Source: Schmidtea polychroa
Taxonomy: Eukaryota
NCBI GenBank assembly: GCA_044892525.1
Contig: CM097885.1
Span: 15,564,001-15,628,000 of the forward strand
DNA: 64,000 bases
Reading direction: 5' to 3'
How positions within the stretch are numbered: position 1 is the stretch's first letter; the number at the start of each line of letters is the position of its first letter. The notes under the pieces are model-generated. The model did not search any database, had not been told where the DNA came from, and saw nothing but the letters and a program-made list of their open reading frames with translations. Shown piece after piece: positions 5,502 to 32,795 of this stretch. The position numbers and the translations under genes are program-made.

Positions 5502-6116
5502 AGTAGTGTGGTTATATACCCAACCAAAACAGCCCTCCCAACAAAACATGCCTCCAAATCACTTAAGCTATTAGAAAAACAACCTAAAACTTATACTTTT
5601 ATAGTATTTTAACCCTATATTTTGAAAACAACCACCTTTAATGACTCTAACTGTTTTAATCTTTAAAGCCTCAAACTCAAAAGCTTCAAACTAAAACCAT
5701 AAAGAGAATAGAAAAGAAAATGGTATTATGAAAAAGTTAGAAGGCTACTTGAGGATGCCAACTAGCAAGTTGCTAATTGGCTAATTAAAAAAAATAAATG
5801 AAATCTTAATCTTGATGTCTTGAAGAATAAAAAATTTTATGAAAATAGTAAAACTGCTCTGAGAGGACAGTGGTATTTTTTTTTTCACTGTCCTCTCAAC
5901 AGTTTTTTTGATCCGGATCATTTTTTTTTTATTCAACCTCTTTCGTTTATCAAATCTCTTCCAATATACAAGCTGGCCAGGCTCATAATCAGAATCAATT
6001 CGATAATAGCAGCACACCTTATTATTCGCTTCTCGCTCGAATACGATTTCATCGGCGTTTTAAGTGTGCTGCTCGAAAGTACAAATGAATTCGAAAGCGA
6101 ATCCGAAAGAGGTCCG

Positions 6117-6208
6117 AAAACAACCGAGAAATAAATGTGCACATTATGGGATCGATCCGGGTGTGTTCGAAAGACTGGTGGCGATAATTACCGGTTCGCC
6201 ACCACACC
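6117..6208 (-). ncRNA. Candidate Pol III RNA-2 (left TIR copy)
   Basis: Mirror of 19727-19818: A-box-like TGGCGAACCGG, B-box GGATCGATCCC and strong stems. Confidence 0.4.
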
Positions 6209-6371
6209 CGTTTCAATATTTTTTTTTTCATATTTATGTTTAAAAAATAATTAATTAATAAAAAAATAAAATAAAATAAAATATACAAGTACTTTATAAA
6301 TATAAGATACCCACACTATTTTCAATATTATTTTCAAATTTTTAATATTATTTTATGTTGAAAAAAAACTA

Positions 6372-6443
6372 ACCTCAGATGTGATTTGAACCACTATCCA
6401 TTTGAACCACTGTGCCAGTCTATTCCCACTGCGCCATCAAGGT
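6372..6443 (-). ncRNA. Candidate Pol III tRNA-like RNA-1, variant b
   Basis: Minus strand ACCTTGA-TGGCGCAGTGG-...-GGTTCAAATC-ACAT-CTGAGGT, then TAG and T8 (6361-6368). The central part differs from the other two copies. Confidence 0.5.
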
Positions 6444-6604
6444 TTGAATTTTTGTCATTTTTTAAATTTTTAATTTATAAAAAAATAAAATAAAATAAAA
6501 TAAATAAAATAAAATATACAAGTACTTTATAAATATAAGATACCCACACTATTTTCAATATTATTTTCAAATTTTTAATATTATTTTATGTTGAAAAAAA
6601 ACTA

Positions 6605-6675
6605 ACCTCAGATGTGATTTGAACCGCTAGCATTTTGAACCACTGTGTCAGTCTAGCCCACTGCGCCATCAAGGT
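6605..6675 (-). ncRNA. Candidate Pol III tRNA-like RNA-1, variant a
   Basis: A-box TGGCGCAGTGG, B-box GGTTCAAATC, T8 run at 6594-6601. Near-identical to 19478-19548. Confidence 0.55.
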
Positions 6676-6916
6676 TTGGATTTTTGTCATTTTTTAAAAT
6701 AATCGATTCAAGTTCTTTTATTCTTTCCTGTAATTGTTTTATTTTATCTAATCTTTTCTCAGCTACTTCTACTGCATTCATGTAAAAATGTCGATACTTT
6801 TCATTCTCTACCACCAACTCTTTAATGTATTCTAATGGTTCTTCTTCTCTTCTTTTCATTCTCTTAAGTTTAACTTCATTCAATTCATTTCTCATTCTTT
6901 CAATAAAGTCAATCAT
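6653..6916 (-). CDS. Small charged coiled-coil protein of the Polinton (87 aa), function unknown
   Basis: E/K-rich heptad-like ORF with AAAAATG start context, divergent from MCP. Confidence 0.55.
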   Translation of the reverse strand: MIDFIERMRNELNEVKLKRMKRREEEPLEYIKELVVENEKYRHFYMNAVEVAEKRLDKIKQLQERIKELESIILKNDKNPNLDGAVG

Positions 6917-7001
6917 TTTTATAAATTATTTTTTTATTGAATTCCCTTTTATTTTTATTTTTTTTTTCAACTTTTATTTTTATCAACTTTTATATATAAA
7001 A

Positions 7002-8294
7002 ATGAATAATATAAATCTTAAAATTCAAGAAAAAAATAAATTAAATCTTGATTATAATAAAGAATTTACTCATGAAATCAAGAAAAATGATGTACTTAAA
7101 ATCTCTCCAACTTCAGGATCTATTGCAAACTTAAATCGTAGGGGTGATATAGTTTTTCAATCTCTTCAAACATCAAACCCAATAGATATTTGTAATGCCA
7201 AATTATATTACAAAGTAGAATTAGAAATTGAAGCAAACAAAGATATAACCCTAGAAAATAATTTCTTTCCAAATTTATTCTCCAACATGAGATTAAAACT
7301 AGGATCATCAGAAATTGAAACTGTTTTACATCCAGGAGTATATTCTACAATGTTAAATTTTATTTTGACTGGTTGTGATTATAAAAATGAATATGGTGAA
7401 TTAACAGGTTGGATTCCTGACACTAATAAAGGGGATTTAGATAAAGATGGTTTAGATGTAAACCATGGTTACCATAAAAGAGCTGAACTTTATAAATCTA
7501 AAAAATTTGAAGGTTATTTTGAATTAAAACACTTGTTTGGATTCCTTCAAAACTATAATCGTATACTTCATAATGTTTTTATAGAATTCATCTGTAATAG
7601 AGTAGAAGGTGATAAAAGATTGTTCTATGGAGCTGTAGATACAAAAGCTAAATTAAAATTATCAACACTTGAATTACATATACCTGAATGGACATTAAAC
7701 CCACATTCTGAAATCAAACTCCTTGAAAGATTAAATTCCAACAAGTCTATAAATGTAAATTATTTAAATAGAATCTGTAGTGAATTTAGTATGACAGAGG
7801 GTTCAACATATTCTATAAAGGTAGCAAATTTTGCATACCGACCAAGATATATCTTGATTGGATTCAAAGAAACAGATTCATCTTTCCAAAAAAATAACAA
7901 TCTATTTATTCAAAAGATTGGAGATGATAATTTAAAAACAATCCAAATTCAATTAAATAGTTCTTATTATCCAATAAATAGAATGGAATTTAATATTGAA
8001 AATAATGAAAACATATTCCCATATCTAAATTATATTGAAACATGTTATGATTTCAAAGTTGAACCGCAATTAAGTTTAGAAGATTTCAAAAATTTATATT
8101 CTATATTTTGTATAAATGTATCAGACCAAGATGATCGATTAGCCATAAATAATGTTGATGTTACACTTCATGTAACAAAGGATTCTAATTTTAAAGCTAA
8201 AGTATATACATTAATATTAGAAGAAAAGAAAATAGAAATGAAATTATATGGTGGAAAGATTTCAATTATTGAAAATGTTAGGGGAGATTCTTAA
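7002..8294 (+). CDS. Polinton major capsid protein (double jelly-roll, hexon-like), ~430 aa
   Basis: Likely start MNNINL at 7002 (the upstream part of the ORF is low-complexity). Motifs RPRYILIGF, IQLNSSYYP and YSIFCINVS are typical of Polinton MCPs; size fits. Confidence 0.85.
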   Translation: MNNINLKIQEKNKLNLDYNKEFTHEIKKNDVLKISPTSGSIANLNRRGDIVFQSLQTSNPIDICNAKLYYKVELEIEANKDITLENNFFPNLFSNMRLKLGSSEIETVLHPGVYSTMLNFILTGCDYKNEYGELTGWIPDTNKGDLDKDGLDVNHGYHKRAELYKSKKFEGYFELKHLFGFLQNYNRILHNVFIEFICNRVEGDKRLFYGAVDTKAKLKLSTLELHIPEWTLNPHSEIKLLERLNSNKSINVNYLNRICSEFSMTEGSTYSIKVANFAYRPRYILIGFKETDSSFQKNNNLFIQKIGDDNLKTIQIQLNSSYYPINRMEFNIENNENIFPYLNYIETCYDFKVEPQLSLEDFKNLYSIFCINVSDQDDRLAINNVDVTLHVTKDSNFKAKVYTLILEEKKIEMKLYGGKISIIENVRGDS

Positions 8295-8311
8295 TATTTT
8301 AACATTTTAAA

Positions 8312-9727
8312 ATGTCTTTAAATAAACCCTATTGGAGATGTGAAACTTGTAATTGTCAAGTTACAAGACATCATAAAGCAAGTCGTCTTAAAACTAAAAA
8401 ACATACAGTAGGTGACCTAATTCCACGAGCTGGAGGCGATTTGCAATCTTCAAAAACAACATCTTCAATATTAAAACCTTTTACTACAGAAAAATATCCA
8501 GGTGAAAGACATTTATTTAAACACAACTATACTGGACCAGGAACACGTCTAGATATTAGATTAGATGAAAATAATAATCCCAAACAAGGAGAAGAACCAA
8601 TAAATAGAATTGATCAAACAGCTTTAAAACATGACATTGCATACAATTCAACAAATCTTAGAGATAGACATGTTGCAGATGTGAATTTAATACATGATTT
8701 AAATAGTATCCAAAATCCATCAACCCAAGAAAAGATTCAAAGAGCTCTAGTTAAATTAGCAATGAAAGGTAAGATTTTCATAGGCTTAGGACACAGTCCG
8801 ATCACCATGGGTGCAAGACTTCCTAGGAAAGCAAAAGATGTTGCTAATAAAAAGATTATTGAACAAGCAGATGCTGAAAGATCCCTCGAGAATATATCCA
8901 AGACTAGTTTATTAACCCCAACAGAATCACAAATAAAATATGCCAACGAATTACACCATGAATTTAGAAAAAATAAAAAATATTTAAAAGTTCAAGTACA
9001 TGAAAAAGATCAAACATGGTCTGCAGATTTAGTCTTTATGCCAACCAAATCATCAGACCCTGAAAAATATAAAATAATTTTAACTGTAATAGATTTATAT
9101 ACAAGATTTGCTTTTGCAAGATGTTTAGAAAATAAAACAGGATATTCTATTACAGAAGCATTTGAAAATATATTTGAAGAAAATCAAAGAATCCCAAAAT
9201 ATTTATGGTGTGATAAAGGAACAGAATTTTATAACAAAGTTTTTACAAAGTTTTTAAATGAAAATGATATTAAATTATATTCAACAGAAAACGAAGGAAA
9301 AGCAGTCGTAGTTGAAAGATTAAATAGAACATTAAAAAATAAAATGTGGAAATATTTTACTGCTATTGGAAAACAAAAATGGAACAATGAATTGTTACAA
9401 AAGATTGTAAATGAATATAATAATGATGTACATAGTTCTATAAAATTAACACCTTTAAATGCTTCCATGAAGCCTGAAACCATTAAAGTGGTAAATATTG
9501 AAAATGATGTTATTGAAAAACTAAAGTTTAAAATTGGTGACCGAGTAAGAATATTTAAATATAAAAATAAATTTGAAAAAGGATTCACAGCAAAATGGAC
9601 AAATGAAATTTTTATTATAAATAAAATACATTATACAACTCCAATAACATATAGCATCTTTGATTTAAATAATGAAAAAATATTAGGTAGATTTTATAAT
9701 AATGAACTACAGAAAACAGATTTTTAA
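8312..9727 (+). CDS. int: Zn-finger + parvovirus-type PLA2 domain fused to a retroviral-like (rve) DDE integrase
   Basis: PLA2 motifs HNYTGPG and DQTALKHDIAY. Integrase WSADL..., LWCDKGTEF...VVERLNRTLK, with 33 residues between the second D and E. One uninterrupted ORF. Confidence 0.92.
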   Translation: MSLNKPYWRCETCNCQVTRHHKASRLKTKKHTVGDLIPRAGGDLQSSKTTSSILKPFTTEKYPGERHLFKHNYTGPGTRLDIRLDENNNPKQGEEPINRIDQTALKHDIAYNSTNLRDRHVADVNLIHDLNSIQNPSTQEKIQRALVKLAMKGKIFIGLGHSPITMGARLPRKAKDVANKKIIEQADAERSLENISKTSLLTPTESQIKYANELHHEFRKNKKYLKVQVHEKDQTWSADLVFMPTKSSDPEKYKIILTVIDLYTRFAFARCLENKTGYSITEAFENIFEENQRIPKYLWCDKGTEFYNKVFTKFLNENDIKLYSTENEGKAVVVERLNRTLKNKMWKYFTAIGKQKWNNELLQKIVNEYNNDVHSSIKLTPLNASMKPETIKVVNIENDVIEKLKFKIGDRVRIFKYKNKFEKGFTAKWTNEIFIINKIHYTTPITYSIFDLNNEKILGRFYNNELQKTDF

Positions 9728-9738
9728 GTCGACAAGCC

Positions 9739-10530
9739 CTAAAACAAACTTTTCCATATTTCAGCTTCTTCTCTATCCAAATAAATATAATTATATTTTT
9801 CTTTCCAATGATTATCAACAAACATATCAAACATATTCTTATCAGGTTCAACATTTGAAAATAAATCATTATAAATCATATTCTTATCACGGCGATCTAA
9901 TTTAAAAAATATAAAACAATTGGAATTATTTCTTATTGAATTTTTATCTAAAGCATAATATGTTTGAGATATATAAATAACATTACAATTATTATGTCGA
10001 CCTCGTGTAAAGTAACTCTTTTGAATCTCTTGATTTTTCATATTAACAACATCATCAAATATAACTAGATTCTTTTTATCTTTAGGAAGTAAATCACAAT
10101 GTAAAACATCTTCAGGTTTATTAGAGAATAAAACTTGAATTGCCTCCTGCCCTTCTTCACAAATATAATCATTTTTATTACTAATATCTGATTCTAAAAT
10201 CTTTTCCTTATACCAATCAACCATATCACAAGGTTGATAAACTTCTTCAGGACACCTATGTTGATTTTTAAAAATATCAATTATTGCTTTTTTAGTTAAT
10301 TTATTTTCAAATCCACATTTCAAAAGTTGTAATTCTGGTTGATTTATGGTTGTAGAATAAAAGATTAAATTATTATAATCTAAAAAATCATCTTCAAGTA
10401 ACATTCTCAAAACAAGTACATTCTTTCCACATCCAGAAGAACCAACAATTAATAATCTAAAATTATCAGGAAATACTTTATTATTAAATTTACTCTTATG
10501 TCTATTTAAAATTGGTTTCCAAATATCCAT
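9739..10530 (-). CDS. Polinton DNA-packaging ATPase (A32-like, FtsK-HerA superfamily)
   Basis: Walker A GSSGCGKN, Walker B LVIFDD, TRGRH motif, ISQTYY. Likely start MDIWKP at 10530. Confidence 0.92.
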   Translation of the reverse strand: MDIWKPILNRHKSKFNNKVFPDNFRLLIVGSSGCGKNVLVLRMLLEDDFLDYNNLIFYSTTINQPELQLLKCGFENKLTKKAIIDIFKNQHRCPEEVYQPCDMVDWYKEKILESDISNKNDYICEEGQEAIQVLFSNKPEDVLHCDLLPKDKKNLVIFDDVVNMKNQEIQKSYFTRGRHNNCNVIYISQTYYALDKNSIRNNSNCFIFFKLDRRDKNMIYNDLFSNVEPDKNMFDMFVDNHWKEKYNYIYLDREEAEIWKSLF

Positions 10531-10545
10531 TTTATTTATTATAAA

Positions 10546-11115
10546 ATGACCTCGAAGAGTTCCTCTACTGAAGAATCTTTGCAAGAATTAATAAATTCAA
10601 ATAAAAATAAATCAGTAGTAATTGATGGTAAAAAATATTTTATTGGAAAACATGTAAAAGAACAAGTTAGAGCGAAGCTCCACGAAGCTAAAGAAGGTGG
10701 CATTCTTCCATTAGCTGCTTTAATACCTGCAATCATTGCTGGTTTATCAGGTGCTGCTGGAATAGCTGGAGGAATTGCAACTACAGTTCAAAAAGCTAAA
10801 GAATCTCAAAAGACAGACCTAGAAAAAGAAAAACTACAAACTGAAATCGATTCAATGAAGAAGGTAAGGCAAGCTAAAGGGGGAGTGTCCGTTGGAAAGG
10901 GTCTCTATCTTAATCCATATGAGGGGAGTCGGCAAAAGTCTCAGGGCAAAGGTCTCTATCTAAATGATTTTTTAAAAAATCAAATTTCTACATCTGAATC
11001 TTTATCTTCAAAAGATAAAGAAGATTTAAAAAAGATATGTAAATCTTTAAAGAATGGATGCCTTTGTAAAACTAAAAATGGTAAAGGATTATACTTGAAG
11101 CCCTTCGAACTATGA
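10546..11115 (+). CDS. Putative virion core/membrane-active protein (adenovirus pX-like)
   Basis: EGG-ILPLAALIPAIIAG hydrophobic segment resembles the adenovirus pX C-terminus (GG-ILPLLIPLIAAAIG). Three GKGLYL repeats. Confidence 0.6.
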   Translation: MTSKSSSTEESLQELINSNKNKSVVIDGKKYFIGKHVKEQVRAKLHEAKEGGILPLAALIPAIIAGLSGAAGIAGGIATTVQKAKESQKTDLEKEKLQTEIDSMKKVRQAKGGVSVGKGLYLNPYEGSRQKSQGKGLYLNDFLKNQISTSESLSSKDKEDLKKICKSLKNGCLCKTKNGKGLYLKPFEL

Positions 11116-11137
11116 TACCATTTTTGATACCATTAAA

Positions 11138-12019
11138 ATGGTATATGAAGAAAGATTAGCACTTTTAAAAAAATTACAATCAGAACAAGATAAATATAAT
11201 AAAAAAGATACAACTCAACATGCTGAATCTATAATATTAAATGAGGTAATAACACAACAACAGGGGCCAACAATTAAAGCTATAAAAGAGTTGGAAGATT
11301 TCAATGAGCAAGCAAAATTTAAAGAGTTAGAAGATAAAAAACAAAAAATAAAAGAACTAGAGTGGCAGGATAAAGAAAAAGAATCCAGTGAAAACCATCC
11401 TGAAAGAAATCAAAGAAAACGCAGAAGAATTTCTAATGTGGAAGAAGAAGAAATGTTTTTAAAAACAAAACCTCTTAAAGTTGATCCTAAAATTAGAGAT
11501 GATTTACCTCCTTCAATTAGACCCACATTTAATACTAATACTGAAGGATATCAAATAATAACAATTAATAAACAAAACTTTACTTTATATTCAAATTCAG
11601 AAAATAAATCACGTATTCATTCACAAAATGTTTATAATAATGAATATTTAGACTTTGAATTTACAGATGATTTTTATAGATTACTTTGTGGATATTCTTC
11701 AGATGATGTTGAAGAAATTAAAAAATATTTAAATTTAATAAGATTAATAAGAGCTAGTTCTAAAGCAAAATATATTCAAGATTTAAAGAATTATTTAAAT
11801 AAAAATGAAAAGGGTTATGTTGTTACAGAGGGAGAGGGATTAATTAGTGAAGGTGGTAAACCAAATCCCATCAATCTTTTTATTGAATTAAGAAAACTAT
11901 TAGCTGCAAGGAAAGCAGGACATAATAATTTAGATTCTGATATTTTAAAGATTTCTAAAGATTTGTTAAAACAAGGAATAATTTCAAAAGATAAATTTAA
12001 TAAGTATACGAAGTTATAA
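11138..12019 (+). CDS. Conserved Polinton protein of unknown function (293 aa)
   Basis: Intact ORF in the structural cluster. C-terminal LRKLLAARKAGHNN...DLLKQGII resembles a helical motif recurrent in Polinton ORFs. Confidence 0.6.
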   Translation: MVYEERLALLKKLQSEQDKYNKKDTTQHAESIILNEVITQQQGPTIKAIKELEDFNEQAKFKELEDKKQKIKELEWQDKEKESSENHPERNQRKRRRISNVEEEEMFLKTKPLKVDPKIRDDLPPSIRPTFNTNTEGYQIITINKQNFTLYSNSENKSRIHSQNVYNNEYLDFEFTDDFYRLLCGYSSDDVEEIKKYLNLIRLIRASSKAKYIQDLKNYLNKNEKGYVVTEGEGLISEGGKPNPINLFIELRKLLAARKAGHNNLDSDILKISKDLLKQGIISKDKFNKYTKL

Positions 12020-12041
12020 ATACGAAGTTTTAAAATACAAA

Positions 12042-12506
12042 ATGACTCCTTCAATATTAGATTTTTTAAAAACATTTGGAATAAATGCAAAAACAAATTT
12101 TGATTTAAAAGATTATGCAAATTATTTAAATTTAAAAATTAAAATATTAATGAATGATGAATTATCAAGTCTGGAGAGTCCCCTGAATATAATAATCAAT
12201 TATCAAAATTCAAATGAAAAAGGATCTCATTGGGTTTGTATATATAAGAAATCTATCTACTTTGATTCTTTTGGGATTAAACCTACTAAAGAAGTTGAAG
12301 ATTATCTCTTGAGGGGTTCTCCGATTGATTCCCCAAATGGTTATACTTTTAACTCTTTACAAGTTCAACCTTTGAATACTAAAATATGTGGTATTTTAAG
12401 TTTATATGTTTTGTATAGATTGAATAAGGGAGAGGGAAAGGGGCATACGCAGGATTTTAAATCTATAATTCAAGAAATTTATAATGATCTAGAATCTCTA
12501 CTATAA
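12042..12506 (+). CDS. Adenain-like cysteine (maturation) protease
   Basis: GSHWV (His), YFDSFG (Asp), VQ...ICG (Gln/Cys) catalytic set. Confidence 0.92.
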   Translation: MTPSILDFLKTFGINAKTNFDLKDYANYLNLKIKILMNDELSSLESPLNIIINYQNSNEKGSHWVCIYKKSIYFDSFGIKPTKEVEDYLLRGSPIDSPNGYTFNSLQVQPLNTKICGILSLYVLYRLNKGEGKGHTQDFKSIIQEIYNDLESLL

Positions 12507-12554
12507 GGATTTTTACTATAAGGATTTTTACTATATGAATTTACTACTAAAGAA

Positions 12555-13319
12555 ATGGAGCTTCACAACCCTCCGGAAGATAATTTAAAAAAAATGGTAA
12601 ACATAATGTCAGATAAATATTCAAGAACTTTATCTATAAATTCAAAAGAATCAGACTTTACTATAAACTTTCAAGATTCAATTAAATTAGATCAAAATTT
12701 AAATTATGAATTGGGGCTATTATGGTTTTGTGCTTATAATACTATTTTTAATATAACTAAAGATAATAATAAATTTACTATTCAAACTCGTGATGGGCAT
12801 AAACCAGAAATTATAACAATAGAACCTGGGGCATATGAGATAAAAGATTTAAATGATATACTTTCTAAAAAATCAAATGAAGGTATTAAAATTAAAATGG
12901 ATATACCAACTTCAAAATGTGTAATGACTTTGAAGAATATAAAAATTAGTTTTTTAGATAATTGTTTCTTTCACACAGTTTTAGGATTTAAACCTATGGA
13001 TATAACAATAAAAGAAGATAAAATAATAACATCAGAACATATTATAAAAATAATAAATACAAACACAATAAATATTCATTGCGATTGTATAACAGGTTCT
13101 TATAATAATGGTAAACAAACAAATGTTTTATATTCCTTTCCCTCAAACACAGTTCCTATGGGATATAAAATAGTTGAAAGAATGAATCCTCCAAATTATT
13201 TACCTTTATGTAGAAAATATATAATGGATATTAATTTTAAAATTCTTAATCAAGAAGGAGAATTGATTGATTTTAATGGAGAAGAGATTTCAATGTATTT
13301 ACATTTGAAACAGGTTTGA
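12555..13319 (+). CDS. Polinton minor capsid protein (penton, single jelly-roll)
   Basis: INIHCDCITGSY, VLYSFP, GYKIVE..P.YLPL and NQEGELIDFNGE..S.YLHLK C-terminus are typical of Polinton pentons. Confidence 0.88.
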   Translation: MELHNPPEDNLKKMVNIMSDKYSRTLSINSKESDFTINFQDSIKLDQNLNYELGLLWFCAYNTIFNITKDNNKFTIQTRDGHKPEIITIEPGAYEIKDLNDILSKKSNEGIKIKMDIPTSKCVMTLKNIKISFLDNCFFHTVLGFKPMDITIKEDKIITSEHIIKIINTNTINIHCDCITGSYNNGKQTNVLYSFPSNTVPMGYKIVERMNPPNYLPLCRKYIMDINFKILNQEGELIDFNGEEISMYLHLKQV

Positions 13320-13343
13320 AGATTCATTTTAAATTATTAATAA

Positions 13344-14354
13344 ATGAGTTCTTATATTCCATGTAATAGAGGTGGTGGAACAATAAAAACAGGGTTTAAT
13401 ACAGAAGAAATATTAACTTTAACAGAAAATAAATATATTAATGAAAGAGGTGATTCAATGAAGGGTGATTTAATTTTAAATGGACACAAGATAAAAGAAT
13501 TATCTTTTCCAACTGATGAAGCTGATGCAGTTAATAAGAAATATGTAGATGGTGTTAAAAAATATACTGATTTAACAACAACAAGAATTGAAAGTTCATT
13601 AACAACAAAAATTGATTCAATGGAATCAAAGCTTAATAATATCGAACAACGATTTAATGATAAATTTGACAAGTTACAAAGTCTGTTAACTGAACAAGTT
13701 GTAAAGTTAAATACTGCTATATTAAATTCTAAAGATAAACAAATTATGAATACTAAATTTAATACAATATATAAAATAATAAATGAGATGATTACATCAT
13801 TTAATAAAAGAATTTCAAATTTAGAGTCTCATGGAACACACATTAACACCACACATAGTATTAGAAAAAGAGCTGCTGAATTAGAACAGAATAAAACATT
13901 ATTACCCCATACATATAAACATTTTATAGAACCAAGTTTAATAACAACAAACAGTAAAGAATGGGGTGTTTTTATGGTTGTAAAGATTATTGATCCTTAT
14001 TTCTTTTTGTTTGATGATGATAATGAAAGAATGAAATGGTTTGTGAAATGTGATTATAATAGTAAGCTTGAAAAGGGTGATGTTATAATGACTAGTTATG
14101 ATTTACCACACGGAGATTGGTATGTTAATACTCATTCACATGGACTACATAAAGTTAAAAGTAAGAATATTATTTTTAAAAGCACACTTGTACAATATAT
14201 AGATTTAATATTTTATGAAAAAAAGGTTGATGTTGATGAAGTTCGTAAAGCATTGAGAGAATTGTATAAAGATATCCTCTCAACAAGAGTTTCTTTTGAT
14301 ATCCGAGTATTGGTGCCAGATGGTGCTCAGAAGAATAAAGTCTTATTTTTTTAA
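13344..14354 (+). CDS. Putative fibre/spike protein
   Basis: GDSMKGDL and PTDEADAVNKKYVD resemble trimeric fibre/adhesin stalk motifs. Followed by a coiled coil and a beta-rich C-terminus; adjacent to the penton gene. Confidence 0.55.
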   Translation: MSSYIPCNRGGGTIKTGFNTEEILTLTENKYINERGDSMKGDLILNGHKIKELSFPTDEADAVNKKYVDGVKKYTDLTTTRIESSLTTKIDSMESKLNNIEQRFNDKFDKLQSLLTEQVVKLNTAILNSKDKQIMNTKFNTIYKIINEMITSFNKRISNLESHGTHINTTHSIRKRAAELEQNKTLLPHTYKHFIEPSLITTNSKEWGVFMVVKIIDPYFFLFDDDNERMKWFVKCDYNSKLEKGDVIMTSYDLPHGDWYVNTHSHGLHKVKSKNIIFKSTLVQYIDLIFYEKKVDVDEVRKALRELYKDILSTRVSFDIRVLVPDGAQKNKVLFF

Positions 14355-14362
14355 TTATTAAA

Positions 14363-14959
14363 ATGGAAGAAGTAAGAGAAGAAAAAATTTACCCAGAATT
14401 GAGATCATCAGGATATTATTCTTCCAAGGCCTCGGCTCCCACAGAACTTGAAATTATGAGAGTAAAAGAATTTAAATCAGAAACCTTACATTTACAAGAT
14501 TTATTAAAGCATTATAAAAAAATTAAAAATAGATGGAATAAAGGGAATACAGTTTTAAAAGTTATAGGTTATTCTTTAGGATTTGCATCTGCAATATTAA
14601 CAGTTATTTTACCCATAACTTTACCAGTTGTTACTCTTGCACCTGTAATACTTGGAAGTATTTCTGTGGCTGATGGTTTCTTAACTGAAATAGTTTCATT
14701 ATCTTATACTTCTAAAAAGAAAAGTTTATATAGAGAAGTTTGTTTATCAATAGAATTAGGAATCTCTAAATTATTTTTATTTCAATTAAAAGCTTTGGAA
14801 GATGGAATCCTGACAGACGAAGAAATAATGAAATCAAATCAAATAATACAAGATATAAAGAATGAGGTTATAAGATTAAAAAGGGAGGGCATGGTGGCTA
14901 ATGTTATAAGTAATAAAAAAACATCTCGAGAAAAATGGTTAAAGAATTCTTATTTATAA
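14363..14959 (+). CDS. Polinton membrane protein with a hydrophobic hairpin (198 aa)
   Basis: Long hydrophobic segment VIGYSLGFASAILTVILPITLPVVTLAPVILG between coiled-coil regions; KALEDGILTDEE. Confidence 0.6.
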   Translation: MEEVREEKIYPELRSSGYYSSKASAPTELEIMRVKEFKSETLHLQDLLKHYKKIKNRWNKGNTVLKVIGYSLGFASAILTVILPITLPVVTLAPVILGSISVADGFLTEIVSLSYTSKKKSLYREVCLSIELGISKLFLFQLKALEDGILTDEEIMKSNQIIQDIKNEVIRLKREGMVANVISNKKTSREKWLKNSYL

Positions 14960-15053
14960 AATGGGTTTATTTTTAAAAAAGTAGATCAGGTTGCTATAGT
15001 TGCTTAAATTAATTGTCGACATTTTATTATTAAAAAATTAAATATCGTTGGTT

Positions 15054-18000
15054 TCAGTTATGGTTGAAAGCCAACCTTTGAATCATTAATTTATGATCTT
15101 TAAATTCTTTATCACTTAGACCTTTTATATATTCAGGATCAGTATTAAAATATTTAAGTTCTAAACATATAGGATTAAAAACTTGAGAATATAAAGGCTT
15201 CTCGATTTCTCTCTTGGGATAAATAATTTCAACATTATAAATATCAAGATCAGTAATCTTTGTATCATATAACTTATTCAACTTTTCTAGATTTTTTATT
15301 ATAGGGATTAAATTATTTCCAATAGGTAGAGTTGTCTTTAAATCACTTAGTATGAATCTCTTATCATCATAATTTGATAATGATACTTTTTGAGATTCTA
15401 TCAAGTGAATATCATGGTTTTCACTTTTAAGTTGATGTATTTCATCAATTTTATCTTTATGATTTGGATTCAATGCATCTATATAATCTTGATGAGAAAG
15501 ATTCTTTGCAACCACTCTCGGTATTCCTTTACATCTGTTATCCTTTACAGGTTTTTCTTCTTGTCCCTCTGGTCCTTTAGGAAATATAGGATATCTATGT
15601 GTAATGGTTTCTTCTGTTTCTGGAGTTTTAAATATAAATGATCTAGTTATAAATTCAGGGTTTCTAAATGTTTCGTATGAATATTGTTTAGCACGAATAA
15701 ATATTCCATTTTCTATAGGAGTAAAAGGTTTTTCATCTTTAAACGAAAATAGTTCTCCAGTTGAATTTATTAAATTTGAAAGTATAGGATTTTCAGCTAT
15801 ATCTCTTTGTAAATCATGAGTTCTTATTGTTAAAAACATTGAATCTGTATCCATTGCATGCATTGATATATTAGAACCATATATAGGTTGTAAGATGTTA
15901 TAATATGTTTCATACATTTGTAATTTTGAAAGTTCTAAAATTGAAAACCCTATAAATATTGGTTTGTTGTATGTTTTCTCAAAACTCTTTAGTTCTATTG
16001 CAGTAAGACTTTCAGAAAATACTTGTGCGTTTTTAAATGTAGGCTTTCCTAGCATACGATTATAACGCTTAATATCTTTGGCAGTATTAGTTAGGAGTTC
16101 AATATGAGTATATTTATCAACATTCTCCATTGTCTTCCCAAAGACTGAATTGTTTAAAAGTTTATAATTATTATCTTTAAAAAGGTTACCTTCTCTTTTT
16201 GCAATGTTTCGACACCTAATGTTCTCCTCGATAAAAGCTTTCATGAATGGAGCTTGTTTAAATCTTATGACACTATGAACTTTTTTTAATATCATTCCTC
16301 GTGAGAGATAAAATTGGAGGAGTCTATAGTGACAAAGATAAAACCTTCGATCTGTTTGATCACAAAGAAGTTTCATTGTTGGAGGTTTATCTTGTGAGAT
16401 TTGCCATTCAGAAAGTTCGTTGATATCAATCTTTCTTCTTATGGGAGCTAAAGGAAAATATCTTGTTCCTGATTTTATATCATCTGGATAGTCGAGGTCA
16501 CATTCTATAAAGTAACCTATTGGAAAATCTTTCGACGTTGAAAGTATTTCTTTCATAAGGTCATCTGTTGGGTTCTCTATTCCAGTGAAATCACTCATTG
16601 GTAAATATTGAGTCATAATTCCTGAATATAAAGCTGTTGCATCTATATAAAGTATAAATATAGGATTTTTCATTGTTTCTAATAATTCTTTTAATTCCTC
16701 ATTGTTAATTTTCATATATGGATCATCAGGGTGTTTAGAGAGTCTTCGGCTAGTAGTTATTGCATTTCTAGCTTTTATTTCTCTATTCCCCATTACTGAA
16801 GAGACTCCTCCTCTAATGTTTGTTTTAATTTGGTTAAACATATCGAGGTTAGTTAAAAGATCTATAATTTTATCAGCATCTTCTATATTTGAAGTCCAAA
16901 TGGTATATAACATAGTATCCCAAGCTAAAGAGGGTGCAGTTATATAATTATAAGGTTTAAGAACAAAAGAGTTTGTAAATTCTTCAAAGCAATCTGCTAG
17001 AATATAAACATCTAAGGATAAATACATGTTGGTATATTCTCCTAAAGTTTTACACTTGAATAATTCCCACATTTTTAATGCTCGAGAATATTCTTGATCT
17101 GTAATCCCTGATTGTAGTAAGTTTGAAAAGAAATCTTCTTTGTTAGGAAGACTTGTTTCATTATATCTTTCAAACGAGTCAACATAGTCATAAGGATATA
17201 TTTCCTTTTGCTAAACATGTAGGATATTCTTCTAGAGGAATATTATTTTTTTCCAAGAATTCTCGAGTGATTTTAAAATTTTCTGGTTTCATTGTTTTTG
17301 CTACTGCATCTAAAGACATTTGGAGAAAGTTTAACGAGTCTATAAATTTTAATTTTCCATATTCAATTGATTTATATTTTTCCTTTGTTAAGCCGATAAC
17401 TTTGAAAGAGTTTTTAGCATTTGCTGCGAGGTGTTTAATAAATAGATGTATGTCATATCCAAAAAGATTATGAAATATAACAGGTATAAATTTAGGAGTA
17501 TGACAATTAAGATTGCAATTTTTATGAGCTGCTCCTCGATAATTATTTTCCTTTTTTAAATGATCATGATCTATAACTTTTTCATCAGGAAGAATATTCT
17601 GTTTACACATCCAACAGTTGGAAGTATTTTCATATTCTTGTTGTTGTTGATTAGAAATATTTTTGAGGATACTTTGTTTTTAATATTTTAAATATTTCAT
17701 GTTCTAGATCATTTATATTTTTAGTAAAATGATTCAAGACTTCTGTTTCTGAAATTCCTCGAAATGTATATTCTCTAGATTCTATGAGTTCAGGATAATT
17801 ACTTTTAAATAATAATTTATAAGCAGATGGTAATTGTTTAGTTTTTTTAACACTATTAGGTTTATTTCTTTTTCTTAGAAAGGCTTTCATCCTCTCTGGT
17901 TTCATCTTCTCTCCTGAGGAGTTCCAGGAATCCATGAGTTTATTTTTTTCTATTATTTTTAAATATTGATAAACCAAATCTTGTTTATGGTTTATAGATT

Positions 18001-19410
18001 CAAAGTCACCATAAAGAACTCCAACTGTTTGTAGTAAATTTGAAAAGTTTTTAAAATATATCTTGGGATTATTAGGCATTTTAATTAAAGCTGGATCATC
18101 TTTTTCACAAAGTCTTGTATGTTTAATCATAGAGTTTTAGTTGTTGAATAATGAAGACATCTTTTACATGTTCCTCCTCCACTAGTTGGATTCTCTGGTG
18201 ATGTAAAAGCTTGAAAGTTTTTTATTAAAACATAATATTGATTATTTTGTTGTTCCAAGATTAAAAGATATATCTCCCTAGTGTTATCCTGCGGTTCGTT
18301 ATCTCTAACTTCATAATCTGAAATATAAATTGGAATAATTTCTCTGCTATTAACATGTTTCCCTTTAACACGTTCATAAATATTAATTTTAAGATTATTT
18401 AAACTTTCAAATTTTGGAATGTCTTCTAGTTTCATTGGATGTTTGAATCCTTTGGGAAATATTAATTCATTTTCATATTGTTTGTATTTTGAAACTCTTT
18501 GGGGATTTGTTGCTTGAGGATGTAAATGTGCAAATATTGACCAGATGAAACATTTGTTATCATTATTCTGTACATTTATAACATTTTTAGATTTAAAGGG
18601 TGTAGGAATATAAGATTTAGGATTGGGTGGTAATCCTCTCCAATAATCAATCACTAAAGTTTGGAAAGAGTTGAATACTAAGTTTGAATCTCCTAATTCA
18701 TTTTCTACTTCCTCTTGTTTTGCTTCTGCTGCTTTAATTATTTCTTTGATGGTTTTATCAAATCCTTTAATTGAAAATAAATATTTAAAAGGTATTCCAA
18801 TTTCAACATCTAAGGGTGTTGTCTTTTCTTCTGCTCCTCGCCAGTATTTTGCTTTGATTATAATTTTATATTTTATAACATTATACCTTGTCGGTTTATA
18901 ATTTTTTAAAGCTTCAGTGAAAGAATTTTTAATATTTTTTTTATTTTTATTTATATATTCTCCAGGAGTTGCAGGCCCATTAATTTTTAATTGAAATTCA
19001 TCTATATGATTAAAATTATCCCAGTTATATTTTTCTCTTTCAACATGATCAGGTTCTCCTTCTGAATGACATTCCTCATCGTCAGAATTTTGTTTTTTAT
19101 TTTTACATTCTTTTATATGTTCTAAATAATAGAAATTTAGTTTTGTTGAAAAGTTACAATGAGGACATGTAAATATTTCTCTATTTTTCCCGATACAATT
19201 TTCAAAATGTTTATTATATCCAGAAAATAGAAATCTTCCTTTACATTTAAGACAAAGTTTTGAATTTGTATCATTAAGATTATTTTCTTTTAATAAATGA
19301 GCTTTCGATTTTAAGTGAGAAATTAATCCAGTTTTATTTTTAAAAACTTTATTGCAAATATTACAATTCATTTTTAGAAAAAAAATTTTTATTGGATACC
19401 CTGTTTTCAT
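15054..19410 (-). pseudogene. polB: Protein-primed family B DNA polymerase (pPolB), broken by three frameshifts
   Basis: N-terminal C2H2 fingers, INVQNNDNKCF, exo YGDFES, CWMC..DHDH..YRGAAH..CN, KGIYPY (frameshifted), YIDATALY, KLLNNSVFGK, MDTDS, YDDKR. Frameshifts at ~18130, ~17662 and ~17203. Confidence 0.93.
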
Positions 19411-19477
19411 TTTATTTTTTAAGATTTATATTATTCATTTTTTATAATAAAAATTTAAAAAATGACAAAAAATCCAA

Positions 19478-19548
19478 ACCTTGATGGCGCAGTGGGCTAG
19501 ACTGACACAGTGGTTCAAAATGCTAGCGGTTCAAATCACATTTGAGGT
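19478..19548 (+). ncRNA. Candidate Pol III tRNA-like RNA-1 (right TIR copy)
   Basis: A-box 19485-19495, B-box 19528-19537, 7-bp terminal stem ACCTTGA/TTGAGGT, T9 at 19552-19560. Confidence 0.55.
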
Positions 19549-19726
19549 TAGTTTTTTTTTCAACATAAAATAATATTAAAAATTTGAAAATAATATTGAA
19601 AATAGTGTGGGTATCTTATATTTATAAAGTACTTGTATATTTTATTTTATTTACTTTATTTTATTTTATTTTTTTATTAATTAATTATTTTTTAAACATA
19701 AATATGAAAAAAAAAATATTGAAACG

Positions 19727-19818
19727 GGTGTGGTGGCGAACCGGTAATTATCGCCACCAGTCTTTCGAACACACCCGGATCGATCCCATAATGTGCACAT
19801 TTATTTCTCGGTTGTTTT
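19727..19818 (+). ncRNA. Candidate Pol III RNA-2 (right TIR copy); may extend further
   Basis: A-box-like TGGCGAACCGG (19734-19744), B-box GGATCGATCCC (19777-19787), stems CGGGTG/CACCCG and TGGTGGCGA/TCGCCACCA, first T4 at 19815-19818. Confidence 0.4.
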
Positions 19819-20433
19819 CGGACCTCTTTCGGATTCGCTTTCGAATTCATTTGTACTTTCGAGCAGCACACTTAAAACGCCGATGAAATCGTATTCGAGC
19901 GAGAAGCGAATAATAAGGTGTGCTGCTATTATCGAATTGATTCTGATTATGAGCCTGGCCAGCTTGTATATTGGAAGAGATTTGATAAACGAAAGAGGTT
20001 GAATAAAAAAAAAATGATCCAGATCAAAAAAACTGTTGAGAGGACAGTGAAAAAAAAAAAATACCACTGTCCTCTCAGAGCAGTTTTACTATTTTCATAA
20101 AATTTTTTATTCTTCAAGACATCAAGATTAAGATTTCATTTATTTTTTTTAATTAGCCAATTAGCAACTTGCTAGTTGGCATCCTCAAGTAGCCTTCTAA
20201 CTTTTTCATAATACCATTTTCTTTTCTATTCTCTTTATGGTTTTAGTTTGAAGCTTTTGAGTTTGAGGCTTTAAAGATTAAAACAGTTAGAGTCATTAAG
20301 GGTGGTTGTTTTCAAAATTTAGGGTTAAAATACTATAAAAGTATAAGTTTTAGGTTGTTTTTCTAAGCTTAAGTGATTTGGAGGCATGTTTTGTTGGGAG
20401 GGCTGTTTTGGTTGGGTATATAACCACACTACT

Positions 20434-20533: not shown

Positions 20534-21469
20534 AGAATAGGAATAGAGCAAAATCGAGTCAATGAGAACGAGAATAATTATTCTGAATTTGTAAAAAGTA
20601 ATACTGAACTATTAGACAAAGCTTTTGATAAAGGAGACCAAGTTACAGCAGATGAGTTAGAAAATATTGTCAAAAGTCACAATCAAGAAGAAAATTTTGA
20701 AAGTAAATATGATGAAACTGAAGTAGATGTGTCAGACAAGAATGAAAATTATAATAGTCATGTAGGCACAGAGGTTGTCGACATTAATGTTATCGAAAGA
20801 CCGAATTCTTTGGTAGAAGATAATTTTCAAAACATGGAAGACGTAGTTAATGTTCAAACGGATTCTGCTTCTTCAGAAAATCATTTAGAAACTGATCGAA
20901 TTATGCCAGATTCTGAGAGCAATGACAGTGATCTTAGAGTCGATATTGGTAAAGATCATACATCCGACACAGCTAAAGATTCTGAACAAAATACATTCAC
21001 TCAACCAACGTCTGCTTTAGATGATATCATTGAAGACTATTCACCTGGTTCCCCTTTATTAAATGAGATGCAACAGGGAAAAGTGGGGACTATTGAATTG
21101 GTGAAACATGCAGGAAGGATAATGGAGATATTGCAGCGAAACAGAATGAAAAGTGGCAGGGGCTTGGTCGAGTATGGCGATGGTGGGAGGAGAATCCACC
21201 ATGATGTATCCAGAAAGGTGCGTGGTGCGGCGGCCTATACCATAGCAAGATGGGTGTGTGAGGGGTATTGGAGAGAGGCAAAAGGAAAGGTTCCCCTGAA
21301 GTAATTGGGTGTTTGATCCGCTAGAAGGGATCAAGGAGGGGGGAAATGTTTCGACCAGTCAGAGGGGGATTGCCTCTGACTGGCATTTATTCGGTTTCTT
21401 TTTCTATCGCATCTGTGTGCGCGGTCTGGTTAGACTGAATATTGTTGGTGTGCGCACACAGACGCGAGT

Positions 21470-22200
21470 AATGGATTGTTGTTTGGAAGTAGGTTTTGAT
21501 GTAATTTTTTATTGAATTGATTTTTGATGTATTTTAATTAGAAATTCGAGATTTGAATGGATTGTTTTGTGGTTTAAAAAAGTTAAAATTCTGGAAGGGA
21601 GGAAACCAGTTTTGTTTATTGAAATAAGTTTTGGAATCGAAATGTTTGAAGAAGAAGATGTTGATTACAAATTTATTAAAGCTTATGATGTTCCAAACCA
21701 AGATCTTATTTCTTATTTCGATGAAACCCGTGAATTCATTGAAAATGGCAGAAAATTTGGTGGAGTATTGGTTCACTGTCTTGCTGGAAGATCAAGAAGT
21801 GGAATTATTTTGACGGCTTATTTAATGAAACATTTTAAAGTTGGTCCAAACGATGCGATTGAGACAATTAAGGAAAAGTCATTTATATGTCCAAATGATG
21901 GATTCATGAAACAATTAAAGATATATTTCAACATGAATATCAGTGATGAAATCAACAAATGCGCAAATACAGTTTCTCAAGCTCAATTTAAGTTATCAGC
22001 ATCTTCAAAAGATTTAGTTCAATTCAAATGTAGAAAGTGTCGATTTTTATTATTCGACAATTCAAGTGTTGTTGAGCACAGTAAAATGAAAGCTTCGAAA
22101 GCAATAAATGAAAGCACAATTTGCAATGAGGAAATACTTATCGAAGCTCTTCCTTGGAATGATAGCAGCAATGCAGACGGGGAAATGAAAATGACAGTGT
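21470..22200 (+). CDS. DUSP12: DUSP12/YVH1-like phosphatase copy B (catalytic site intact; 5' frame and 3' end doubtful, possibly a pseudogene)
   Basis: VHCLAGRSRS active site, ICPNDGFMKQL, and the start of the C-terminal Zn domain FKCRKCR. The last part of the Zn domain is not seen before the (TTA)n tract. Confidence 0.7.
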
Positions 22201-26786: not shown

Positions 26787-26962
26787 GTAATAGGTAATTT
26801 ATATTTTATATGTTATAAGTTATGTTTCTGTAGTAATAGATTTAAATCGATCTTTAATTTGTGGAATTTGGTTTTGATGGTTTGTTAATGGAAGAGCAGG
26901 AATCGTTTGTTTGAACTGGTAAATTGTGTAGAAATTTTGGATTTTTGTTTTTTAGTTGAAAC

Positions 26963-27655
26963 ATGGAAGAAAATGAAGGCCTGAAATGTCGTCTTCCAAT
27001 GAGCAATATAGCGAAGATTATTTTCTCACCTGAAGGGAGATCATTCCAAGTCGAATATGCATTTAAGGCAATTGCATTAGATGGATTGCTTTCCGTTGGT
27101 ATTCGAGGCAATAATGGTGGTGTAGTAGCTACACAAAGAAAAGTTCCAGATAAAATGATTGAGAAGAGTTCAGCTACAAGATTGTTTAATATTACTGAAA
27201 GTACTGAATGGGTTATGACTGGTATGATCCCTGATTGTCGATCTCAAACATGTCGTGCACAAATGGAAGCAGATCGATTTAAATATAAAAATGGATATGA
27301 AATGCCTTGTGACATAACATGTCGTTGTATCGCGGATATTAATCAGCTCTACACCCAATCGGCTGAGATGCGACCATTAGGTTTATCAATGATAGCATTA
27401 TCTTATGATATTGAAATGGATAAACCGTTATTATTCAAAACTGACTCCAGTGGCTTTGTAACTGGACATCGAGCTGTTGCAGTTGGTGGGAAGCAATTGG
27501 AGGCTAAAAGTTATTTGGAAAAGAAACTACGTAAAAATAGAGCGTGTGAAACTATCAAATACATAAAAATCTTTTTGACGTGTTTTAGACGAAAACAAAT
27601 GATAATAATAACAAATAATAATATTAATAATAATGATAATAATAACAAAAAATAA
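26963..27655 (+). pseudogene. PSMA6: Proteasome subunit alpha-1/alpha type-6-like, intronless, with altered N-terminus and truncated C-terminus
   Basis: IFSPEGR.FQVEYAFKAI, TQRKVPDK, VMTGM..D.RSQ, KYKNGYEMP, YTQSAEMRPLG, LEKK; then runs into low-complexity sequence. Confidence 0.8.
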
Positions 27656-29095
27656 ATAATAATAATAAGAATAATAATAATAATATAAAACGAAGATTCC
27701 TTGCCAGTAGCATCGATTAAAAATAAAATAATTAATAAATAAAGTTCTAAGATTTCAGTGCAAATTTCATATTTAATAAAAAAATAAATGAGAATTTTCG
27801 ACTATGAAATAATCTTATTTAATTGATTGAAAAATAAATAATAAAATTCCACTACTGGTCAATGTAGGCAAGGTGATTGCTCGCCATATATTCTCAGGAA
27901 ATGGCCATAGTTTGCCTTTTGATGGACATGAAGGACATTTTGTATCCGGCTATTGCTGGAGGTAATATTTTATATGGATGACACGTGTCAGCTGCCTGAG
28001 AGCCACAGGAATATCCTAGAAGGCCACTATTAGCATAGAAAGGAACTTATTTACTCCTTCACTCACCAATGAGAATGAATAATAATTTAACATTATGCCA
28101 TTTTCGCATCTAATGCTTTACTGATCCATCTCAGCCATGTAGAGGCGCCATTGAAAGCTTGGTCAGACCGCGTGCCAATACTCATGCTCATTGCGGAAAA
28201 TCCAGTCAAATCGCCTTCATTGCCCTCATAAACATTACACAAATGCACTCAGTCTGGGACACATTTCTCGCTATCCGTTCTGAGTAAGCATCCGTTTGTA
28301 CAGCTCCTTTCATGCATGCCATCTGATATGTCAGTGTGGGATCTTGTCTGTGTACAAGTTTCCACACCTTTAAATTGAGGATCTAGAAAGGATAAAATCA
28401 AATTCCTAATAAGTCACGTCACAATGTATCAATGCGTTCGATGAAATAACAAAAAACAATGAAAGATGACCACGACTACTGTTGAATGACATCAGAATGG
28501 TCCTGACAATTGCTCAATGGTGTCCATTAATTGGATTAATATTAAAAAATATAAAACAAATGTTTGATTTTTTGCTGAATCTGCTGTGACCGATTTCTGT
28601 GCCATATTTATGTACATCTATCAAAACATACACTCTCCAGGACATTCACTAGCACAGTGAACTACAATTTGATAGAATCAATTTAATTAAGTGTCAATTA
28701 GGCATTGCATTGATCACAGATTTCATAAAATTATACAAATATTCGTTACAATTTAATTTTTTATTGTGTTAAATCTAATCCAATTTATCAATATTGCTTT
28801 GTGCATTTGATGTTTTATCATTGCAACTATGTCACAATAAAATGTTATAAAATTATAATTTAAATAATTTTGTAATATTTAAAATAAATGAGAAAAAAAT
28901 TAACATTAATAATATTTTGATTTGCGCTAAAAGTTAAAAAACAATATTTATAAAATGTTTGTTTATCTACATCAAAATACAAATTATAAATATTGAAATT
29001 GTCAACGTCAGAGGAAATAATTAATATAATAAGTATGATTTATGATTGTTGTAAAATGTTGAAATATTTTGATAATATTGTTAATTTTAGATAAA

Positions 29096-30955: not shown

Positions 30956-31929
30956 AAATTGATTTATTTTGGCTTTTGATTTGTTTTATTGTTTGCATTT
31001 TTTATTATATTTATTATATGAGATAATTATTGTGGTAATTATTGTCATTCTCGCCTTCCATCCGATATCATCATCACTTGGCGGAGCGCTCACAGCAAAT
31101 TGCCAATTGCAATATCAACATCAATTATATAATTAAATAAAAGCAATTTAATTAAATCAAAACATTTAATATAAATTTGAATAATTATTATAATTAAATT
31201 AATAATTAATTTGAAAGAAATGAAATTAAAATTCACCCGAATATAAGCGCTGACAAATCGCCTCAACAAATCAAACGCTCCTATGACGAGTGGAACTGAC
31301 GAAAAAACCGCCGCTGATGTTATATGAGTTTTGGATAAATTATTGCTGTACTGAATGGCAGTAAAATGCACCTAAATGCAATACTAACACCGCGTTATAT
31401 CAAATTGAATTCTTTGAATTTTACTTATTAACAAACAACGAAATTTATCTTGAAATCTTGAAATTATAAAAAAGGGGATCATTTAGGAAATTTATAAATG
31501 AGGTTTTAAAGTGAAGTTGAGTCCAATACCTAATCTACATCAATACCTTGTGGTGATAAGTGACGGTTATGGAGTTTAAGGCGGGGGGGGGGTTATTTAT
31601 AAAATTTATAAATTATAATCTTAAATTAAACGTAAGTTGAGCATACATAATAAAGTAATTTACATTAGCGAATTTGGTACTTGATTGATGGTCATATTAC
31701 TTGAGGGGCATAAATGAAATTATAATTTTAAAATTCAAAATTTTAATTAGACATTTCTAAGAAAACAATTTACATTAATACATTTAGGATGAGATTAGTA
31801 GCAGTGGCACTTTAAGAGGTCAAAAATAAAATTTGTAAATTAATATTTTAATTCTCAAATACAAGATGAATAAATATATAGATAATCTATATTAGGGAAA
31901 TTCTTAATAAGTAGATGACTCTTAGCAAT

Positions 31930-32795
31930 ATACGAAGCAATCAAACACTTCCAACATTTATTCGAAGGACGAAACTTAAAAATATTCACAGATCACAAAC
32001 CGCTAACTAACGCAATCATAATAAAGAACCCCTCACCAAGTCAAATTACACAATTCAACTTCATTTTACAATTTAACTGCACAATAAACTACGTAGCGGG
32101 AAAATAAACATAGCAGCTGACGCTCTATCAAGAAACGAAAGTGACATAAACTCCCTGGAATTCGAAAACATAATCAAATTGGATCAAATTAAATCCAAAC
32201 AAAACGAAACAATTAACAAACTTCCCACTAAACACAGTTTGAAACTACAAGAACTCAACGGAGTATGGCACGACGTCTCCAACAAAAGCAACAAACGAAT
32301 ATTACTTCAGGAGGAATTCCGTGAAAACTGCATCGAAAAGATACACAAGATTAATCACTCTGGAAACAAAGTAACATTCGAACTAATAAACAACAATTAT
32401 ATATGGCCTAAAATGCGGAAAGACATCAAAAACTACGTCAAGAGAGTTCACAGCTGCCAGTTAAATAAAACAACAAAAAACTCAAACCTCTAAAAGTAAA
32501 CTTCCCAAGCAGCGAAGTCTTCTAAACAATACACACAGATATTGTAGGACCACTACCACCAAAAGACAACTACAAATACCTGTTGACAATTATAGACAGC
32601 AAATCCAACTGGTTCGAAGTAATCCCAATAGAAGAAATCACCGCAAAAAATATATGTGAAATGATCGAATTAAATTGAATAGCTTGTTATGGCCAACCGA
32701 AAACATTCATAACCGATCAAGACAGACAGTTCGAATCAGAAATGTTCAAAATACTCTGCAACAAATACAACATCAAAAAGAACCGAACAACAGCT
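31930..32795 (+). mobile_element. Degenerate Gypsy/Ty3 pol relic (RNase H-integrase)
   Basis: IFTDHKPL, H..NHSG...YIWPKMRKD, HTDIVGPLP, TDQ.RQFES, with stops and frameshifts. Confidence 0.85.

Follow-up and report, generated by a model that had tools for sequence, protein, structure and literature searches.

A putative RNA polymerase III gene with a covarying RNA fold in the terminal inverted repeats of Polinton elements

The terminal inverted repeats (TIRs) of a Polinton in the window, by which we mean the whole 64,000-nucleotide stretch analysed here, carry an outward-facing unit, referred to as RNA-2, that is probably transcribed into an RNA selected for its fold. The reading that we prefer, at a probability of roughly 0.45, is that this unit is an element-encoded RNA polymerase III (Pol III) gene, whose folded RNA of 360-380 nt would act in trans, likely as a silencing decoy. 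Neither a replication origin nor a SINE is a probable identity of the unit.

Carrier element, promoter boxes and predicted transcript

The carrier is a 14.9-kb element (5502..20433) with AGTAGT termini and a 6-bp target duplication, GCTGGA. Pfam matches to DJR, rve, Pox_A32 and DNA_pol_B_2 were found in it; a PolB, an rve integrase, a double-jelly-roll (DJR) capsid, a packaging ATPase, TIRs and the 6-bp target site duplication identify it as a Polinton/Maverick. In this copy, PolB is split over four separate open reading frames (15054-19410), and an 87-aa frame without a Pfam match (6653-6916, minus strand) faces outward at the left end and enters the head of the neighbouring unit RNA-1. The insertion point is apparently a VHCLAG/RSRS motif (5355-5502 and 20434 onward), which we take to be a dual-specificity phosphatase active site. 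Elsewhere in the window, 5150-5449 is repeated at 21437-21736, a repeat of about 6 kb occurs twice (26943-32774 and 56683-62957, 90-97% identity), and a 19-bp tandem array lies at 39282-40113. The host genome is AT-rich, with 781 Mb and four very large contigs.

The predicted full unit occupies 19726..20108 on the plus strand of the right TIR (about 360-380 nt), its start and end being placed by folds and T-runs. The preliminary description had reported an A box and a B box 44 nt apart, and this was confirmed: the A box, TGGCGAACCGG, is at 19734..19744 (plus strand) and the B box, GATCGATCC, at 19778..19786 (plus strand). The spacing is likewise 44 nt in RNA-1 (19478..19556, plus strand; A box at 19485, B box at 19529, T9), which has two copies in the left TIR, at 6668 and 6436. 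The mirror copy of RNA-2 claimed at 6008-6210 is letter-identical, and the whole mirrored unit lies in the left TIR at 5830..6209 on the minus strand (z -7.1 for the 380-nt mirror). Pairs matching the A/B pattern occur only five times in the 64-kb window, all inside the two TIRs, and a pair spaced by 43-47 nt arose in 0-1 of 3000 dinucleotide shuffles. When RNA-2 and RNA-1 were aligned pairwise, the likeness was mostly confined to the boxes.

For a census of the promoter, 60 left ends were chosen by their capsid gene, and 44 of them have the unit. Among these 44 capsid-anchored copies the A box is exact in 39 and carries a tolerated C>T variant in 3, and the B box fits GWTCRANNC in 41. The common B-box variant (22 vs 17 copies) hits only an N position; it breaks the GGATCGATCC palindrome yet keeps the consensus, which speaks for a B box rather than a palindromic site. 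In older, decayed rows anchored on the 3' part of the unit, conservation of the A box does not exceed that of its flanks (0.82 each). Additional A/B-box units with T-runs were seen at the left ends L112, L115-L120, L154, L156, L157 and L162, and an RNA-1-like unit precedes the unit at three loci of subfamily C (L214, L097 and L091).

A loose A-box/B-box pattern has 6816 matches in the whole genome, of which 5385 fit a tRNA-type B box; all 100 listed of these 5385 come from a tRNA-Val array. This leaves about 1,400 box-intact copies of the RNA-2 unit (6816 minus 5385). A tandem tRNA-Val(AAC) array with a 252-bp period runs from G000:C1:177776741 onward (L101). A strand excess in the genome-wide box matches, considered as an RNA-2 signal, was discarded because it stems from the tRNA-Val arrays instead.

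Two transcript lengths had been proposed, one of about 90 nt stopping at an internal T4 (19815..19818, plus strand) and one reading through it. The T4 is a possible weak stop that is present in 42/44 young copies and not kept in the older subfamilies, 7 of the 13 rows of subfamily B having no T4 anywhere in the unit. Another T4 is found at 20084 in the window copy. The first T6 after the A box, at 20103..20108 (plus strand), is the candidate strong terminator, and the first run of five or more T falls at 20090-20109 in 36/44 copies; a T5 ends the one host tRNA-Val gene examined. Given the absence of the T4 in B rows, the position of the T5+ runs and the T5 of the host tRNA gene, the read-through RNA of 360-380 nt is the likelier main product and the 90-nt form a possible one. 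Helices under selection downstream of the T4 also speak for the longer form. With A and B boxes at tRNA-like spacing and an oligo-T terminator downstream, the unit has the layout of a Pol III type-2 gene, and its earlier description as a Pol III-type unit is supported by covariation, strand asymmetry and box conservation.

Fold of the unit and covariation across copies

The unit is predicted to start with a 5' hairpin, P1/P2 (19726..19776, plus strand), in which GGGU at 19726-19729 pairs with ACCC at 19773-19776. Both 5' stems that had been described are in the minimum free energy (MFE) structure (z -3.3 for 19722-19780), but they covary weakly, with one double-sided cell only. ARAGORN found no tRNA here or anywhere in the unit. 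Downstream, a four-way domain (19822..19999, plus strand) is closed by the helix 19822-19830/19991-19999 and contains a small hairpin, the stem P6 (19862..19927, plus strand) with an inner junction made of P7 and small hairpins, and the 60-nt hairpin P10 (19929..19988, plus strand). P10 is long (23-26 bp) and G.U-rich, with 23 bp in the window copy and 25 uninterrupted bp in the C-type copy L059. A further hairpin, P11 (20030..20087, plus strand), has an A-rich loop and a T4 at its end; its z score is -8.05, and both strands are equally stable. For 19726-20003 as a whole, z is -4.05, and RNA-1 is without a stable fold (z -0.01).

The multibranch fold proposed earlier was therefore right in its outer stem (19862-19927), which folds (z -4.0) and covaries at 7/10 pairs, but wrong in its end at 19927, as the fold goes on to 19999 and includes P10. 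Its inner hairpins fared less well. The two C-G pairs of the CGAT/ATCG hairpin are kept, but its A-T pair is replaced by T.T or C.T in the majority of older copies; the TATTCG/CGAATA hairpin had to be abandoned, being broken in subfamilies B and C and in 5/12 A rows. A helix that changes from CGC/GCG to CAC/GTG covaries at the site of the latter. Two conserved loops inside P6 may be T-loop-like.

Diverged copies were gathered by the box pattern and by a 3' motif, and the alignment consists of the window and 39 of 73 homologues that passed the filters, picked for length with near-duplicates dropped. We assigned the rows to subfamilies A (12), B (13) and C (15). The structure tested is the window's own fold, and it should be noted that the 3' motif fixed parts of P6 and P10 in 14 rows. 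Across the 51 named pairs and 40 copies, 93% of cells are paired, vs 89.3% in shuffles and 37-44% for control pairs slid along the alignment. Double-sided changes are found in 110 cells, vs 43+/-5 in shuffles, and none of 500 shuffles reaches this number; they trace to about three lineages rather than to 40 events. Two measures based on counts of pairs or of pair types gave no excess over the shuffles (331/500 and 413/500). RNAalifold, run unaided, recovers P6 and the base of P10, with double-sided changes at 6/15 pairs.

Covariation is strongest in P6, which is rewritten with its pairing kept, from GCAGCACACT/GGTGTGCTGC in the window to GTAATGCGTG/CACGCATTAC in L085. In P10, 95.7% of cells are paired, and nowhere in the unit is the sequence better conserved than in the loop-proximal arms of this hairpin (0.97 and 0.94, against about 0.8 elsewhere). 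Double-sided change is almost absent from the 5' hairpin and the closing helix; in the latter 93.5% of cells are paired and none changes on both sides. Among the 44 young copies, the stem variants shared between copies in P6, P10 and P11 are A-U/G.U, G-C/G.U or A-U/G-C switches, P11 having an A-T/G-C switch. A helix between the B box and the 3' end and a hairpin like a tRNA T-arm were considered and set aside, as neither clearly covaries. A fourth subfamily of the unit, D, with stem variants of its own, was noticed at L207-L211 and L215.

Several further observations count against our preferred reading. P6 is deleted, with a common junction, in L142, L159, L044, L045 and L047, and its inside is missing in 6/13 B rows; P5 is broken (A.C) in 15/44 young copies; and there is no stem joining the 5' and 3' ends.

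RNA-level structure, distribution and dispensability

A preliminary alternative was that the stems are single-stranded DNA (ssDNA) structures of a replication origin; a binding site of the terminal protein is a variant of it. The origin reading was tested and is disfavoured by the DNA folding energies, by sister copies with short TIRs and no unit, and by the position of the unit upstream of integrase in other copies. The predicted energy of P10 is -19.9 kcal/mol for plus-strand RNA, against -4.7 for the minus strand and -4.2/-2.3 for DNA, so that the hairpin is unfolded as DNA and on the minus strand. Its z score is -4.85 on the plus strand vs -0.06 on the minus strand (-6.31 vs 0.11 in L059), and the plus strand is the more stable one in 39/40 rows. 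Of 15 stem changes in contigs of organism B, 14 leave a pair in place on the plus strand and 8 on the minus strand (p about 0.002 given the transition rate, for 15 changes among those listed and without phase). The 3' arm of P10 (19963-19972) has no listed change in organism B; the 5' arm does change. The proposal of a fold at the RNA level is thus upheld by covariation and by strand asymmetry, P10 folding as plus-strand RNA only.

Some features do suit an ssDNA origin: the unit is in both TIRs, palindromes are frequent, P6 and P11 show the same stability on either strand and as DNA, and L074 carries an inverted duplication centred on P11. Template switching could, moreover, yield double-sided changes without selection. 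G.U pairs kept on one strand argue against this, since template switching would perfect Watson-Crick pairs. An origin would also be expected at the terminus of every mobilised copy and in a form that folds as DNA, and the copies show otherwise: L128, L139 and L149 have short matched TIRs without the unit and such copies nest among carriers, C-type copies precede the start of integrase, and other copies have separate AGTAGT..ACTACT fold-back end modules. We therefore regard an origin as highly improbable for the unit as a whole, and for P4-P10 it is largely refuted.

In L074, the 3' part of the unit is inversely duplicated at 1400-1850 with P11 at the centre, which suggests a template switch at P11. 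Copies L128, L129, L139, L149, L150, L154, L179 and L180 end in a module of 190-300 bp between AGTAGT and ACTACT, with inner inverted repeats of about 30 bp that differ in sequence between lineages; judged by sequence, these end modules are a candidate for the real terminal fold-back structure. A palindrome, TAGCAA..TTGCTAG, was seen by eye in the outer TIR of the window (20157-20181), and look-alikes of it, also found by eye, lie just inside the end module of short-TIR copies.

The unit aligns in 25/25 B and C copies, and the outer TIR in 0/25. C-type copies adjoin Polinton proteins that are mostly 35-66% identical to those of the window, and in L214, L042 and L094 an integrase (38-49% identical) follows immediately after the unit and P11; the C-type loci are fragments whose termini are outside view. 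The unit is absent from 16/60 capsid-anchored ends. Six of these unit-less ends were traced to the other end of the element: in L128, L139 and L149 the two TIRs match, measure 260-470 bp and contain no A/B unit, and the remaining three are truncated. In a capsid tree of 43 rows, in which 16/40 inner branches are weak, the unit-less copies are scattered among carriers, so the unit has been lost or swapped more than once. As far as these comparisons tell, the unit is old and its structure is under selection, and yet an element can do without it in cis; a product supplied in trans should behave in this way, and an origin should not. Distant capsids used as queries returned the same family in the same genome. 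No relatives were found in viral contigs by searches with the capsid protein, the capsid alignment and the box pattern, nor in metagenome contigs by a search with the P10 motif.

Another possibility is that the boxes work mainly at the DNA level, with TFIIIC/Pol III forming a barrier at both ends by which the inward-directed promoters of capsid and polymerase are held open, the fold only stabilising or releasing a by-product RNA. B boxes have boundary activity. The ends carry clusters of one to several A/B units, of which some, such as RNA-1, are without a fold, and silencing of Polintons by Piwi-led chromatin changes in a planarian is described in the available text of one report (PMC8532177). 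Such a barrier leaves a 180-nt domain with strand-specific covariation unexplained, and a role in cis fits poorly with integrated sisters that lack any A/B unit; we consider it quite unlikely.

Passive cargo, that is a tRNA-derived SINE or a captured host RNA gene inserted in the TIR, is a very unlikely origin of the unit. Such SINEs consist of an A/B-box head, an unrelated body and an A-rich stretch, and the unit likewise has a tRNA-like head followed by an unrelated body and an A-run. Around the boxes, the head is similar to host tRNA-Val (the only tRNA compared), but outside them the likeness is marginal (30/500 shuffles). In a few D-type copies the sequence sets in near the predicted 5' end, and the nearest 1.5 kb hold no Polinton protein. 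On the other side, the copies move with their TIR flanks and give no sign of independent retrotransposition: among about 1,400 box-intact copies, 0 intact young heads have a foreign upstream flank, in a search blind to copies with A at -3 or -4. From the flanks, then, the unit is not an active SINE. It matches no Rfam family, and passive carriage does not predict covariation among element subfamilies.

Comparison with known Pol III RNAs and a possible role in trans

Rfam gave no match near the gathering score for the unit and no match to adenoviral VA RNA at E<=10. The SRP, 7SK, vault, Y, tRNA, VA and ribozyme families are accordingly without Rfam support as its identity, and motif likenesses to 7SK, Alu and hammerhead RNAs found no backing in the computations. 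Our best reading of the sequence is that the unit would be VA-like in design, yet a member of neither the VA RNAs nor the TMERs of murine gammaherpesvirus 68.

As far as the available text on VA RNAI and RNAII goes (PMC7589676), the unit shares with them an intragenic box A and box B, an oligo-T stop with read-through forms, a compact multi-stem RNA with a long duplex, a GGGU/ACCC pairing, and a carrier related to double-jelly-roll DNA viruses. It differs from what is described there in its length (160 nt for VA RNA, about 360-380 nt here), in lacking in its MFE structure the terminal stem that joins the 5' and 3' ends of VA RNA, in having its B box between domains rather than in an apical stem, and in placing GGGU/ACCC in the 5' stem rather than in a central domain with a pseudoknot. 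The unit furthermore has no Rfam VA match, sits in the TIR of an integrated element and is known from sequence alone. Adenoviruses are relatives of Polintons.

The likeness to TMERs that had been suggested holds for the layout and fails for the tRNA cloverleaf, with 0 ARAGORN hits and no Rfam tRNA match. According to the portions of the TMER report at hand (PMC4337559), both have a tRNA-type promoter head followed by stem-loops, an internal weak T-run and units clustered near a genome end; the hairpins of RNA-2 lie inside a four-way domain and are not a free series as in TMERs. The unit also lacks a 3' acceptor strand, and the partner strand of its 5' end precedes the B box. Polinton-like viruses and MELD viruses are stated, in the passages accessible to us, to carry tRNA genes and other Rfam non-coding RNAs (PMC12220804, PMC8502044). 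These, too, are non-coding RNA genes on Polinton-related elements; as presented there, they are detectable by ARAGORN or Rfam, whereas neither tool recognises the RNA-2 unit, which is not a tRNA.

The predicted folds include hairpins of a size suitable for pre-miRNAs. The main rival of our reading, though an unlikely one, is that Pol III makes a precursor whose hairpin P10 (or P11) is processed to a specific small RNA regulating host genes, as for TMERs and retroviral Pol III miRNAs. At 60 nt, P10 is pre-miRNA-sized; the conservation of its loop-proximal arms and its unchanged 3' arm in organism B would suit a mature product, and its 5' arm, which changes there, would not. Drosha requires a basal stem, and P10 is inside a multiloop without one. 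No cloverleaf for RNase Z was found by ARAGORN or Rfam, no Rfam miRNA family reached the gathering score, and the hairpin arms have no complement of more than 11 nt in the element body. An A/B head, stem-loops and an internal weak stop also recall TMER1 and TMER5, as these appear in the available text (PMC4337559).

Under our preferred reading of a trans-acting Pol III RNA, TFIIIC/Pol III would start near 19726-19727, read through the T4 at 19815 and stop at 20084-20108. The resulting outward-facing RNA would be abundant, and its long G.U-rich duplex would engage host proteins that handle double-stranded RNA (dsRNA), serving, by analogy with VA RNA, as a double-stranded decoy or substrate for silencing proteins. 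VA RNA engages Dicer and exportin, as stated in the available text (PMC7589676). Given transcription, we see about an even chance that P10 is a binding partner of Dicer, exportin or dsRNA-binding proteins and dampens the silencing of the element. Copies without the unit could still spread if, as we propose, the RNA were supplied in trans by other copies. The accessible part of one study reports that in a planarian Polintons are silenced through piRNAs and Piwi-led chromatin silencing (PMC8532177), so that such pressure exists in at least one animal.

Traces of expression were sought in run X1, which we presume to be RNA. All contig depth over 19809 in this run represents the alleles of one haplotype, and most depth over four other sites likewise matches the haplotype of 10/44 genomic copies; the contigs of X1 do not reach the 5' head (19726-19767). 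This skew is a weak hint of expression from one sub-lineage, and a strain difference or contig collapse could also produce it. Cover in organism C consists of one low-depth contig with the alleles of X1, which may be carry-over, and uncovered bins in organisms B and C were not counted as absence.

No Pol III structured RNA was described for Polintons in the literature searched (subscription papers, repeat-library annotations and supplements lay outside its scope). Rfam and ARAGORN miss the RNA-2 unit, yet surveys of non-coding RNAs in related elements relied on these tools, to judge from the available portions of their text. If expressed, the unit would make it possible to test how a virus-like transposon evades silencing by small RNAs; it would also represent a novel family of structured RNAs in which covariation occurs naturally, and a point of comparison for the origin of VA-type RNAs. 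More broadly, and doubtfully on present comparisons, animal Polintons may own an ancient VA-like RNA, retained in lineages with less than 50% integrase identity, that is supplied in trans and jams RNA silencing, helping one family to reach thousands of copies. Were the VA-like reading true, adenoviruses would not be alone among Polinton-class viruses in using Pol III decoy RNAs.
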